This document shows positions 1,778 to 55,122 of a stretch of 64,000 nucleotides of DNA, piece by piece. Source of the stretch: Octopus sinensis. Its lineage: Eukaryota. The notes below the pieces were generated by a model. That model did not search any database and had not been told where the DNA came from. It saw only the letters and a list, made by a program, of their open reading frames with translations. The stretch is taken from contig NC_043010.1 of NCBI RefSeq assembly GCF_006345805.1, forward strand, positions 10,664,001 through 10,728,000. The letters run 5' to 3'. How positions within the stretch are numbered: position 1 is the stretch's first letter; each line of letters opens with the position of its first letter. Position numbers and translations under genes: made by a program.

Positions 1778-3370
1778 GCAATGACTCAGAAGATGTTTGA
1801 GCAACAATGTGGACACAGTTGGATGCAAGCGTATATATGATGACACATATGCAACATTGCAACATGCATAAAATTGCATAAGATGACATGCACGTGTACA
1901 ACGATATATAAATTTATACCTTGTGTGTGTGTGTCTGTTTGTGTGATTCAACTACTTTACACACAAGGCAGGTGGCATTTAGGGCATGCATCCAGTACCA
2001 CAGCGCTTATAAAACTATAAAACCATCGTTCAAACTGCAAAGTATAATCTCTTGCATGTGTATACATGTATGCTGCTATGCTTGTAATACATGTGTGTGT
2101 GTATATATGTATGTGTGCGCACATATATATATATATATACATATATATTTATATTATATAGAGTGGAAAAATTTACAGATTTTTTCTCTTATGAGGTTTT
2201 TCACGCTAACTACTGATAATTTCTTATAAAGATTTTATCCTTAATTTTAAATATATACATATATATATATATAATATATATATATATATATGTATGTATG
2301 TAAGTATGTATGTATGTTTGTATGTAATTTTGTGTTTGTGCATGTGTGTATCTGTGTGTGTGTGTGTATGTGCATGCATTTGTGCATGTGTATGTGAATG
2401 AGTTTGGAGAAGCGTTTACACATTTCGTAAAACTTCCTCCAAAGCGTTTATCTCAATCTGGTTATTTTTTATAACTTTTTTTTAAAGATTTAAGAATTGT
2501 CTAACTTACAAAAATTTTACTTCATATATTTGTAACTATATCAAGAATTCTTACTAAAGAAAAACATTTTAAAATATATGTATAAATGAAATGTATTTCT
2601 TTTCTCTTTTTAATTTAGCGTTAATTTTGATTGGTCACCTGTTTGGTAGCATGGTTGTGAAAGAAAACATCTTTTGTTTCTCATCCTTTAAAATCTGAAG
2701 ATTGTTTGCAGTTGTACGTCAGCAGATGTATGTATGTATGTATGTATGTATGTATTAATAATGGTATGATAAACTCACATAACAAAACACTATCTCACTA
2801 TACCAAGAGTTACAATTGCATATTTGTAATAATCACATCTGTAAGTGTGAACAGGTGATGATCTTAGCACGCTCAGAAGTTGGTCTGGTTCACACAACCA
2901 GACAAATGCACAGTCATTTATGTGCACATTTCTGCACACATATGCATGTATGCACACGAAGAAGCTAGTATAAATATTACACATTGAACAGATGGATACA
3001 CATCTGTTCGTATCTATGCTTAAGGTGTTAGTTAGCAATTAAGGAAGATAAAATAAGCTACGCAGACAGATGTATACACAGGAATATCTGTTAGTGAAAC
3101 TTGTACATAATACAAGCTCTAGCTTATAACAATCTTCAGTAGACTAAACTGAATACAGTGTTCTATTTGAAGCATCAATGGACAAAGAAAGATCAAACTG
3201 AAATATAGTATTAATATCTAATATCAAAGATGATGGAACCAATAATTTGTGAAATGTTATATTTGCTAGGTTTGGTTTGGATTTGCTGAAATTTGTGATT
3301 TTCATCTAGGATATGATGAAGGATAAACAATATATCAAAGTCTTGTTAGGAGTCAATATTTTCTATTCTT

Positions 3371-5135
3371 AAGGCGGCGAGCCGGCAGAAATGTTAGCAC
3401 ACTGGGCGAAATGCTTAGCAGTATTTCATCTGTCTTTACGTTGCAAGTTCAAATTCCGCCAAGGTCAACTTTGCCTTTCATTCTTTCAGGGTCGATAACT
3501 TAAGTACCAGTTGCATAGTGCTGTTGATCTAATCGACTGGGCCCCTCCCCAAGCAATTTCGGGCCTTGTGCCTAGAGCAGAAAAAGAACATTTTCTTTTC
3601 TTAAGGCAGCGTGCTGGCAGAAATGTTAGCATGCTGGTCGAAATGCTTAGCAGTATTTCATCTGTCTTTACATTTTGAGTTCAAATTCCGCCAAGGTCAA
3701 CTTTGGCCTTTCATTCTTTCAGGGTCGATAAGTTAAGTACCAGTTGCATAGTGGTGTTGATCTAATCAAGGCGGCGAGCTGGCAGAAACGTTAGCATGCC
3801 GGGCGAAATGCGTAGCCATATTTCGTCTGCCGTTACGTTCTGAGTTCAAATTCCACCGAGGTCGACTTTGCCTTTCATCCTTTCGGGAGTCAATAAATTA
3901 AGTACCAGTTACGCACTGGGGTCAATATAATCGACTTAATCCGTTTGTCTGTCCTTGTTTGTCCTCTCTGTGTTTAGCCCCTTGTGGGTAGTAAAGAAAT
4001 AGGTGTTGATCTAATCGACTGGGCCCCTCCCCAAGCAATTTCAGGCCTTGTGCCTAGAGTAGAAAAAGAACATTTTCTTTTCTTAAGGCAGCGTGCTGGC
4101 AGAAATGTTAGCACACTGGGTGAAATGCTTAGCAGTAATTTCATCTGTCTTTACATTTTGAGTTCAAATTCCGCCAAGGTCAACTTTGCCTTTCATTCTT
4201 TCAGGGTCGATAAGTTAAGTACCAGTTGCATAGTAGTGTTGATCTAATCGACTGGGCCCCTCCCCAAGCAATTTCAGGCCTTGTGCCTAGAGTAGAAAAA
4301 GAACATTTTCTTATCTTAAAGCAGCGTGCTGGCAGAAATGTTAGCACACTGGGTGAAATGCTTAGCAGTAATTTCATCTGTCTTTACATTTTGAGTTCAA
4401 ATTCTGCTGCGGGCAACTTTGCCTTTCATCTTTTCAGGGTCGATTAAATAAGTACCAGTTATGCACTGGGTCGATATAACCGACTTAATCCGTTTGTCTG
4501 TCCCCTCTGTGTTTAGCCCCTTATGGATTGTAAAGAAATAGGTATTTTGTCTGTCTTTATGTTCTGAGTCCAAATTCCATTGCGGTCAACTTTGCCTTTC
4601 ATCCTTTCAGGGCCGATACCAGTTGCATAGTGGTGTCGATCTAATTGACTGGCCCACTCCCCAAGCAATTTTGGGTTTGTGCCTAGAGTATAGAAAAGAA
4701 CATTTTCTTTTCTTAACGCAGCAAACTGGCAGAAACGTTAGCATGCCAGGCGAAATGCTTAGCAGTATTAGGTTTGTCTTTAAGGGGCTAAACACAGAGG
4801 GGACAAACAACAACAGACAAAGCGATTGAGTCAATTACATCGACTCCCGAAAGGATGAAAGGCAAAGTCGACCTCGGCAGAATTTGAACTCAGAACGTAA
4901 CGACAGACGAAATACCGCTAAGCATTTCGCCCGGCGTGCTAACGATTCTGCCAGCTCACTGCCTTTCTGTCTTTAAGTTCTGAGTTCAAATTCCATTGCA
5001 GTCGACTTTGCCTTTCATCCTTTTGAGATAAAGAAAATAAATACCAGTTGCATACTGGGGTCGAAGTAACCAACTGCCCCTAATCCCCAAAATTCTAAAA
5101 TTTCAGGCCTTGTACCTTAAGCAGAAAAGAATATT
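3371..5135 (+). mobile_element. Cluster of SINE family B units: ~231-bp head-to-tail tandem copies, a nested copy at 3768-4001 and an inverted copy at ~4775-4965
   Basis: Repeated heads AAGGC(G/A)GCG..CTGGCAGAAA, B-box GAGTTCAAATTCC, central GCCTTTCATCCTTTCGGGGTCGATAAATTAAGTACC; 15-bp TSD GGTGTTGATCTAATC at 3753-3767 and 4002-4016. Confidence 0.85.
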
Positions 5136-38489: not shown

Positions 38490-38911
38490 CATTTCTTATT
38501 TCTTTATTGCCCACTAGGGGCTAAAAATAGAAGGGGCAAACAACGACAGACAAATGGATTAAGTCAATTATATCAACCCCAGTGCATAACTGGTACTTAA
38601 TTTATCAACCCTGAAAGGATGAAAGGCAAAGTCGACCTCGGCGGAATTTGAACTCACAACGTAACGGCAGATGAAATACCTATTTCTTTACTACCCACAA
38701 GGGGCTACACACAGAGAGGACAAACAAGGACAGACAAACGGATTAAGTCGATTATATCGACCCCAGTGCATAACTGGTACTTATTTAATCAACCCCAAAA
38801 GTATGAAAGGCAAAGTCGGTCTCGACGGAATTTGAACTCAGAACGTAAAGACAGATGAAATACCGCTAAGCATTTCACCGGCCGTGCTAATGTTTCTGCC
38901 AGCTCGCCGGC
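38490..38911 (-). mobile_element. SINE family B dimer (full unit plus 5'-clipped unit)
   Basis: Junction AAAGAAATA|GGTATTTC at ~38680; AACCAATTA repeated on both flanks. Confidence 0.8.
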
Positions 38912-39267: not shown

Positions 39268-39913
39268 CTTTTCTACTCTAAGCATAAGGCTTGAAATTTT
39301 TTGGAGGGGTGGGTGCCAGTCAATTAGATCGACCCCAGTACATAACTGGTACTTAATTTATCAACCCTGAAAGGATGAAAGGCAAAGTCAACCTTGGCGA
39401 AATTTGAACTCAGAACGTAGCAACAGACGAAATACCTATTTTTCACTACCCACAAGGGGCTAAACACAGAGAGGACAAACAAGGACAGACAAACGGATTA
39501 AGTCGATTACATCGACCCCAGTGTGTAACTGGTACTTATTTAAGGTGGCGAGCTGGCAGAAACGTTAGCACGCCGGGCGAAATGCGTAGCCGTATATCGT
39601 CTGCCATTATATTCTGAGTTCAAATTCTGTCGAGGTCGACTTTGCCTTTCATTCTTTCAGGGTCGATAAATTAAGTACCAGTTTCTCACTGGGGTCGATG
39701 TAATCGATTTAATCCGTTTGTCTGTCCTTGTTTGTCCCCTCTGTGTTTAGCCCCTTGTGGGTAGTAAAGAAATATGTACTTATTTAATCGACCCCGAAAG
39801 GATGAAAGGCAAAATCAACTTTGACGGAATTTGAACTCAGAACATAGCAACAGACGAAATACCGCTAAGCATTTTGCCTGGTGTGCTAACGATTCTGCCA
39901 GCTTTCTGCCTTT
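39268..39913 (-). mobile_element. SINE B dimer with a plus-strand B copy nested at 39542-39775
   Basis: TSD GTACTTATTTAA around the nested copy; same dimer junction at ~39435. Confidence 0.8.
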
Positions 39914-53030: not shown

Positions 53031-53800
53031 AACATGATGTCCGTAGTATTATACAAATTCAATTCTTGTATTAATATTGTGGTTTGCTTCAGAAAGCCTG
53101 TCTACTGCTATTAGCCAGCAGGCATGATTTTACCACAAAGTTATTCATTTTACTGAAGATATATTTATATTTATATTTATATACAGGTAGGGTCAAAAGT
53201 AGGTGTACACTTTTTGAATTAACTTCTTTTTTTTTTTACGTGTACCATGAATAATGGCAAATAATTTGAGTCAAGAACAAAGAAAGTGGATTCTAAAGCA
53301 GTATTGGAAGACTGAAAATGCTGAGTAGGTGTGTATGGCATGGAGAGAAGCATTCTCCAGTAACATGACTGACAATACATTGCATGAGGTAAATTTGGAA
53401 AAATGGGTTCAGTGGTCAATACATCGAAATATGGACATCTTTGAACGTCAATGAGTGAAGAAAATGAGATAACATTTGTGAACAATCCGCAAAAGTCCAC
53501 ATGCCATGCATCACAGGGGCTATCCATACAGAAAACACCTTTGTGAGGCTTAATGAGTAAATTGAAATTGAAACTATATCATCCACGGCTGGTACATGGT
53601 CTTCTGGAGGATGCCCTAGATTATCAATTGCAAATTCTGTGAGACGATGCATGAAAAAATCACTAATGAACAACCAGACATTCTTGATAAAATCACCTGG
53701 TCCGATGAGGCTTGTTTCAAGTTGTCAGACCACATAAACAGGCATAACTGTGTGTGCTGGGTAGATGGAAATCTTCATTTAGTATCACAGTGTGGGGTAG

Positions 53801-54106
53801 CAGAGGCACATGGCCTAGTGGTTAGAGCAGCAGACTCGCGGTTGAGGGATCGCGGGTTCGAATCTCAGACCAGGCGGTCTGTGTGTGTTTATGAGTGAAA
53901 CACCTAAGCTCCATGCTGCTTCCAGCAGAAGGTAAAAGCGAACTTCTGCTGACTCTTTCGCCACAACTTTCTCTCACTCTTTCCTCCTGCATCTTGCAGC
54001 TCACCTGCAACGGACTGGCATCTCATCCAGGTGGGGAACCTATACGCCAAGGAAACTGGGAAACCGGCCCTTATGAGCCGGGCATGGCTTGAGAAGGAAC
54101 AAACAA
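53801..54106 (+). mobile_element. SINE group D, tail type 3
   Basis: tRNA-like head with GGTTCGAATC; (AAAC)n tail; TSD ACAGTGTGGG(G/A)TA. Confidence 0.85.
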
Positions 54107-54348
54107 ACAGTGTGGGATACACTGTCCTGCAAAGGTGTTGTAGGACCAATTTTCTTTGATAGAACTGTGAATAGTAACAGTTACTTAAACATGCTTCATG
54201 ATGTAATTTTGGCACAATTTAAAACCAGAGCAAATTTTTCCAAATTGTTCTCTCAGTAAGATGGGGGGGGGGGCAGCAGCTCATCATGCTTTAACTGTAA
54301 GAGATTACCTTGACAATAACTTCCCACAGCACTGGATTGAATGCTGGG

Positions 54349-54467
54349 GCTTACGGCCATAACACGTTTAAAGCACCGGTTCTCGTCCGATCACCGAAGT
54401 TAAGCAACATCGACCCTAGTTAGTACTTAGATGGTGACCGCTTGGGAAACCTAGGTACTGTAAGCAA
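54349..54467 (+). rRNA. 5S rRNA full-length copy (probable retropseudogene) with 3' trailer ATCCCG(T)7
   Basis: GCTTACGGCCATAAC...CCGGTTCTCGTCCGATCACCGAAGTTAAGC...TTAGTACTT.GATGG-TGACCGCTTGGGAA..CTAGGT.CTGTAAGC; GCTTAC/GTAAGC terminal stem. Confidence 0.9.
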
Positions 54468-54481
54468 TCCCGTTTTTTTGT

Positions 54482-54870
54482 AAGGCGGCGAGCTGGCAGA
54501 AACGTTAGCGCGCCGGGCGAAATGCTTAGCAGTATTTCGTCTGCCGCTACGTTCTGAGTTCAAATTCCGCCGAGGTTGACTTTGCCTTTCATCCTCTTGA
54601 GGTCGATAAATAAAGTACCAGTTTCTCACTGGGTCGATGTAATCGACTTAATCCCTTTGTGTGTCCTTGTTTGTCCCCTCTATGTTTAGCCCCTTGTGGG
54701 TAGTAAAAAAATAGATATTTCGTCTGTCTTTATGTTCTGAGTTCAAATTCTGCCGATGTCGACTTTGCCTTTCATCCTCTCGGGGTCGATAAATAAAGTA
54801 CCAGTTTAGCACTTTGTGTGTCCTTGTTTGTCCCCTCTATGTTTAGCCCCTTGTAGGTAGTAAAGAAATA
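54482..54870 (+). mobile_element. SINE B dimer fused downstream of the 5S copy
   Basis: Full unit 54482-54712 plus clipped unit 54713-54870; the whole 5S-SINE block is flanked by TGGATTGAATGCTGGGG (54333-54349, 54871-54887). Confidence 0.85.
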
Positions 54871-55122
54871 TGGATTGAATGCTGGGGCAGCATCGAATGG
54901 ACACCACATTCACCCGACTTTATACCAATGAACTTCTTTTGGGGGAGAATAGTAAAAAAAAACTCCACGCAGTGGACAAATTAAATGAGTTCAATTTTTA
55001 TTGAAATTGATGCCGATCAGAATTTGTGTTGTGTTGTGCGCTGCAGTGTTCTGGAAAGATTTGAGAAATGTTGCAATGCAGAATGTTGAAAGAGGACATT
55101 TTGAGCATTTATGAAATTAAAA

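Follow-up and report, generated by a model that had tools for sequence, protein, structure and literature searches.

The window analysed here is a stretch of 64,000 nucleotides from Octopus sinensis (NC_043010.1, positions 10,664,001 to 10,728,000 of the forward strand). At positions 54333-54888 it holds a 5S rRNA copy joined to two SINE units inside a decayed transposase gene. SINE-A, SINE-B and SINE-C are working labels throughout, and the genome searched comprises 2.72 Gb. The features of the locus are:

53400-55115 (limits approximate), plus strand: decayed Tc1/mariner transposase gene, host of the insertion
54333-54350, plus strand: left target-site duplication (TSD), 16 nt plus a GC common to the start of 5S; exact repeat
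54349-54466, plus strand: full-length 5S rRNA retrocopy (Rfam RF00001), about 4% off the column-majority of chimeric 5S copies
54467-54479, plus strand: pre-5S 3′ trailer, ATCCCG plus T7, the same as in the 5S genes arrayed on contig C4 at 135.795 Mb
54480-54481, plus strand: 2-nt linker GT, likely non-templated to judge from the sequence
54482-54714, plus strand: full SINE-B unit, with tRNA-like head, central domain and a tail in common with an L1/Tx1-like LINE
54715-54870, plus strand: second SINE-B unit, from SINE position 52 on and lacking 26 nt internally; regular in the SINE-B family
54871-54888, plus strand: right TSD, exact repeat of 54333-54350

The 5S copy scores 92.3 bits and covers model positions 1-120. 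At gathering scores, Rfam gave no other match in the window, nor did ARAGORN detect a tRNA there. A T7 terminator run (54473-54479) lies between the 5S and SINE-B parts. The Rfam match and the unit coordinates agree with an earlier note on this DNA, which had described a 5S copy with a T7 trailer, about 2 nt from a full SINE-B that is followed by a clipped one.

The block is enclosed by a perfect 18-nt direct repeat, the last two nucleotides of which (GC) double as the first two of the 5S sequence, giving a duplication of 16-18 nt. The repeat interrupts the Tc1/mariner transposase frame (..HWIECWG / SIEWTPHSPD..), and the uninterrupted motif is present at the insertion site in 3 of 6 paralogous transposon loci (L184, L185 and L186). 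Frame and paralogues thus uphold the perfect repeat of about 17 bp splitting a transposase frame that had been noted before. A 49-aa piece of the transposase was not recognized by Pfam, and the host gene has another SINE too, near 53803-54090. Since a single TSD brackets the whole block, the 5S and SINE-B sequences entered this locus in one retroinsertion, as the earlier note had maintained. Indeed, among 20 complete 5S-SINE-B chimeras a TSD was found at the 5S start in 10 (one of them a weak AT run), and the SINE's own TSD, which the earlier note had named as a sign of separate arrival, was found at the SINE start in none. Plain SINE-B copies have a TSD at this position in 24/39 cases (control, 1/39). 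The flank-to-5S junction is bridged by contigs of public runs X1, X2 and X6 (X1 being possibly the source of the assembly); none among the contigs listed from public runs bridged the 5S-to-SINE junction, and at the right junction an X1 contig reaches only 28 letters into the SINE side, less than the 31-letter threshold. An empty site in a related species was not seen: run X9 yielded no contig across the flank, and contigs of other SINE copies crowded the matches to the junctions.

The window locus is one among many independent fusions in its genome. A DNA search for 5S next to a SINE head, with 40 of 1721 candidates scored, led to 30 retrieved loci: the window, one gene array and 28 5S-SINE-B fusions, the latter corresponding to 24 independent events (five loci have one common flank) with varied spacers and different TSDs. 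As an unbiased sample, we took the first 100 listed of 270 exact matches to a 23-nt 5S motif (contigs C1-C6). A retroelement start or tail lay within 24 nt of the 5S in 89 of them; the rest were 9 gene-like copies in clusters and 2 unclassified copies. It should be noted that the partner motifs were picked after the sequences had been seen; the control rate at random positions was about 2% (48 hits, just under 3000 positions). At least five partner types were represented: SINE-C head (31), CR1/SINE-C tail (30), SINE-B head (12), GAT-tail element (7), SINE-A head (3), SINE-B tail (2) and others (4). The 5S part of the chimeras is sense and 3′-extended, with an intact 5′ end in 44/89, and the SINE-head partners are complete, starting at the transcription start, in 40/43 SINE-B/C cases. 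For U6, 30 loci were retrieved from 48 matches, 20 of which form one gene array; 7/9 dispersed U6 copies (one tandem duplicate merged) are fused to the same partners. The U6 array (L129-L148, on C1 at 141.83-141.95 Mb) consists of at least 20 variant genes in tandem, spaced 1.1-1.4 kb apart.

The same adjacency could in principle arise from two separate insertions, with SINEs that favour the T-rich termini of 5S retrocopies and genes landing there later. In favour of this, no long TSD was seen in CR1-type chimeras: no TSD of at least 9 nt was found in 15 CR1-tail chimeras or in 11 SINE-C chimeras (in several of the SINE-C cases the script misplaced the end). For these two classes, the case for a single event accordingly comes from the adjacency itself and from the scarcity of solo 5S retrocopies. 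However, the window block has one TSD around it as a whole, no SINE had its own TSD in the 20 chimeras above, and the substrate needed, a solo dispersed 5S copy, makes up at most 2 of the first 100 of the 270 motif matches; nor does any SINE lie at the terminator in the 5S gene arrays examined. We therefore consider two insertions extremely improbable.

The trailer identifies the form in which the 5S RNA was captured. The end of 5S followed by the trailer pattern of the window occurs at three places in the genome, once in the window itself and twice in a tandem array of 5S genes on contig C4. Genes of this array bear the ATCCCG(T)n sequence that the earlier note had proposed looking for behind them, and outside the window the trailer matches only this array. 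The 5S part is an unprocessed precursor that ends at the terminator in a gene-specific trailer, bearing out the U-tailed precursor suggested before. Trimming of the pre-5S 3′ end is established (PMC13215694). Other gene-like 5S copies differ in their trailer, in which a T run mostly follows 3-11 nt past the mature end, and the same trailer types recur in chimeras. The spacers between 5S and partner are 1-24 nt long, mostly 10-18, and include trailers found in 5S genes; as they never exceed 24 nt, it was RNA that was captured rather than rDNA spacer. A source of DNA-level capture that had been raised, a SINE residing downstream of 5S in the rDNA unit, was not seen in any of the 5S gene arrays examined. 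These genes are clustered on C4 (131.8-135.8 Mb) and on C5 (50.2 Mb; L095-L098, L120 and L112), with at least seven different 3′ trailers among them. A gene with the commonest trailer type was not found among the four genome matches to it, the two inspected being chimeras.

The earlier note had left a choice between captured RNAs and an undescribed 5S/tRNA composite SINE, and had pointed to the junction as the means of deciding. The window junction occurs once in the genome and 87 of the 89 sampled junction strings are distinct, the heterogeneity expected of recurrent RNA capture. A composite SINE of the SINE3 type would have been amplified from master copies. Some observations have this flavour: two chimeras on different contigs and with different TSDs (L012 and L026) have a T-free spacer of 14 nt and rare 5S variants in common, the junctions of L006, L007 and L010 are near-identical, and trailer type is associated with partner (permutation p 0.0002). 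The association may reflect timing, or some re-amplification, and in the L012/L026 pair secondary retrotransposition of a composite is possible. However, this pair has no common private SINE variants (distance 0.08), and at the window locus read-through from 5S into the SINE would be blocked by T7. A 5S-derived head and a LINE-derived tail, as in SINE3, are both present, while a shared junction descended from a master is absent, with the one suggestive pair as qualification. Because the window junction is unique, the sampled junctions are heterogeneous and T7 separates 5S from SINE, we do not consider the block a member of a composite SINE family, an origin to which we would give very little credence.

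The second, clipped unit was taken in the earlier note to be a third captured RNA, and here our results differ. We surveyed SINE-B arrays in 0.83 Mb, made up of the window and the retrieved loci with seven duplicates dropped. Extra units follow 32/77 full SINE-B copies (45:22:8:2 for one to four units), and 53/60 later units begin at positions 47-56, 46 of them at position 52, with four more at position 18; the junction between units is invariant. Extra units occur in 8/20 5S-SINE-B chimeras, the same rate as in the full SINE-B copies surveyed. The clipped unit is thus part of the usual arrays of SINE-B, with or without 5S, and most likely not a third captured RNA. Such arrays, with a full SINE-B, up to five position-52 units and the invariant junction, are seen elsewhere in the window (38497-38909, 39318-39542 and 4317-4650) and at L007, L024 and L099.

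Serial capture of three RNAs would involve a SINE RNA cut at position 52, a jump to a full SINE RNA and a further jump to pre-5S. In its favour, position 52 is placed at the loop of a long hairpin into which the SINE-B head is predicted to fold (z -4.4), and units 1 and 2 of the block carry different linked variants at positions 63-66, as units of one array often do, such mixed haplotypes being common. On the other hand, the invariant unit junction is unlike the 5S junctions, copies that begin at 47-56 on their own are nearly absent (2 of 195 arrays, one of them at a locus edge), and full-plus-full arrays are rare (1/60). In addition, the sequence of a next unit is already present at array ends: at least 4 nt of position-52 sequence follow the SINE end in 29/75 cases (control, 0/75). 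Finally, insertions that create clipped units have been caught in place. At L013 a 5S-SINE-B chimera lies inside another SINE copy at position 52, and at L087 one does so at position 18; both have TSDs and are followed by exactly the clipped SINE remainder in question. At L075 a SINE-B head is followed by a full copy. Taken together, these data make serial capture quite improbable. We infer instead that multi-unit SINE-B RNAs result from self-insertion and Pol III read-through. Template switching from unit to unit is also possible as a source of arrays, and the near-equal divergence of units within (8.7%) and between (10.5%) arrays would fit with it.

Two other origins of the unit were tried and rejected. 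A fixed SINE dimer with distinct left and right arms gave no diagnostic column in a comparison of 82 first with 30 later units. For a ribozyme or circular-RNA (retrozyme) origin, the Rfam scan returned 5S only, and a circle could not supply the head. We also observed a SINE-B in opposite orientation within another SINE-B at about position 56 (window 4714-5075). The host SINE at L087 combines a SINE-B head with a different tail, also found at window positions 3370-3600 and 4084-4310, and represents a sister family.

The partners point to more than one LINE. The SINE-B tail has 511 matches, and a LINE lying in (TATC)n runs shares this tail and has pieces of ORF; one of three pieces of the LINE with the SINE-B tail contains a zf-RVT domain, a C-terminal zinc-binding domain (E 4.6e-6). 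We take this LINE to be L1/Tx1-like from motif likeness and its microsatellite targets, a placement deduced from C-terminal fragments. The short CR1/SINE-C-type tail has 1437 exact genome matches and is the end of a distinct LINE with a reverse transcriptase domain upstream (RVT_1, E 2.2e-11), presumably CR1 by its motifs. In 30/30 chimeras the CR1 partner begins at one fixed base of a hairpin, as do 19/30 plain CR1 tail copies (L151-L180), in which the LINE sequence that would precede the tail is missing. CR1-type tail copies thus have a hot spot of 5′ truncation at the base of their terminal hairpin.

The best explanation for the window locus, to which we give a probability of roughly 70%, has two RNAs entering in one retroinsertion: a transcript of SINE-B, likely already of two units, and a 5S precursor not yet processed. 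A LINE reverse transcriptase likely joined the two by jumping, once at the 5′ end of the SINE RNA, to the U-tailed 3′ end of the 5S precursor. The two-unit RNA would have been made earlier, through insertion of SINE-B into another SINE copy at position 52 followed by Pol III read-through. The L1/Tx1-like LINE that shares the SINE-B tail would prime reverse transcription at the SINE 3′ end, and the enzyme, on reaching the SINE 5′ end, would add about 2 nt before jumping to pre-5S. End-to-end template jumping with non-templated additions is documented for the R2 reverse transcriptase (PMC8857657). As in that system, the cDNA here would be continuous over separate templates and include non-templated additions; R2, however, was studied in vitro, whereas the LINE enzymes in question belong to other clades and their role is a proposed one. 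The product would probably be a dead end at the window locus, because T7 would halt a 5S-driven transcript before the SINE part. This argument fails for most chimeras, since a T4 run is kept in only 24/89 spacers and 65/89 are without one. Most of the dispersed 5S and U6 copies of this genome probably go back to the same jump, carried out by several LINE systems (L1/Tx1-like, CR1), since each of these stringent LINEs starts only on its own tail.

The two RNAs could also have been joined before reverse transcription, with RtcB or a similar ligase linking the 3′ end of 5S or U6 to the SINE or LINE RNA and the fused RNA then being retrotransposed. RtcB ligation has been demonstrated for human U6/L1 (PMC6789731), U6 chimeras are present in the octopus genome, and the fixed hairpin start of the CR1 partners and of many plain tails could be a cleavage site with a 5′-OH. 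For the CR1-tail chimeras, ligation at a cleavage site is accordingly possible. However, the 40/43 SINE-head partners that start at the transcription start are predicted to have a 5′-triphosphate, which sharply lowers RtcB ligation, and the 3′ end of precursor 5S is not known to bear a cyclic phosphate, as the same paper states for 5S (PMC6789731). As a triphosphate at a Pol III start would be a poor RtcB substrate, jumping is favoured at the window locus and ligation first seems unlikely there.

SINE heads are thought to come from template switching onto small RNAs, and intermediates have rarely been sampled in numbers. Szafranski (2004), by its title, reportedly ascribed a Dictyostelium 5S retropseudogene to LINE template jumping, a single SINE-like element as opposed to the genome-wide pattern seen here. 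The window locus has a small RNA 5′ of and sense to the 3′ part of a retroelement, a TSD around the whole chimera and a junction from a heterogeneous set, the features of template-switch chimeras, and it belongs to the known class of chimeric retrocopies of the U6-SINE type. Platypus has U6-L2 and U6-Mon-1 chimeras and Anolis has U6-L2, U6-RTEX and U6-AnolisSINE2, and the stringent L2 and RTE clades are described as forming chimeras only (PMC4476161). There too a small Pol III RNA stands 5′ of the end of a SINE or of a short LINE, in the same orientation, and the fusion arose in one event (PMC4476161); in contrast, the octopus donor is mostly 5S with its precursor trailer, the partners are often complete SINEs, and there are hundreds of cases involving L1/Tx1-like and CR1 systems in an invertebrate. 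Human U6/L1 and 5S/L1 copies likewise join a small RNA to the 3′ part of a retroelement with TSDs outside (PMC6789731, PMC11838501), but human 5S is truncated and often antisense (PMC11838501), whereas here it is sense, 3′-extended and in 44/89 cases 5′-intact, and human U6/L1 is explained by RtcB ligation (PMC6789731).

Addition of 5S to tRNA-headed SINEs by template switch is a proposed origin of some families (PMC4824008, PMC4494074). In SINE3, in 5S+tRNA-headed SINEs (Nishihara 2006) and in SINEU, 5S also lies 5′ of a tRNA-headed SINE; unlike the octopus fusions, with their independent junctions and, in the window copy, a retained terminator, SINE3 and SINEU are families amplified from masters (PMC4494074, PMC4824008). 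The available text of a 2026 Octopus vulgaris repeat paper has a table with one '5S' and one 'U-L1' SINE family and does not contain 'chimer' or 'rRNA' (PMC13282606). In the literature searched, which lies outside subscription papers and repeat databases, no paper on cephalopods was found to deal with 5S chimeras or with SINE arrays built by self-insertion; nor did the near-universality of fusion for 5S, the retention of precursor trailers or arrays of self-inserting SINEs turn up in print.

By extrapolation from the 100 copies examined (89% of 270 exact motif matches), the genome would hold about 240 such chimeras, perhaps 850 on a rough estimate. Their trailers record 5S gene variants and precursor lengths. 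As donor 3′ ends and acceptor 5′ ends are both preserved, template jumping can be weighed against RtcB ligation for each partner separately. In annotation, copies of this kind would be mistaken for 5S genes or for members of a SINE3 family. A bolder reading, which we put forward tentatively and think more apt to be wrong than right, is that about a thousand captures are recorded here, made by reverse transcriptases from two or more LINE clades whose jumps are specific to nascent U-tailed Pol III precursors and pass over the far more abundant mature 5S. Some fusions without a terminator (L012/L026) would then have transposed a second time already, as a 5S-headed SINE at its birth on a self-inserting SINE.

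Three further loci, or groups of loci, are of note. One 5S-SINE-B chimera amid inverted SINE-B arrays is present in five copies with the same flank on unplaced contigs (L014-L017 and L024), through duplication or assembly redundancy. At L169, a 5′ fragment of SINE-B (about positions 1-57, with a T run at its end) is joined to a CR1-type tail, with an apparent TSD. Lastly, at L178 (1400-1541, oriented to the tail) a tRNA-like sequence with a terminal T run is joined to a CR1-type tail, suggesting capture of pre-tRNA as well.
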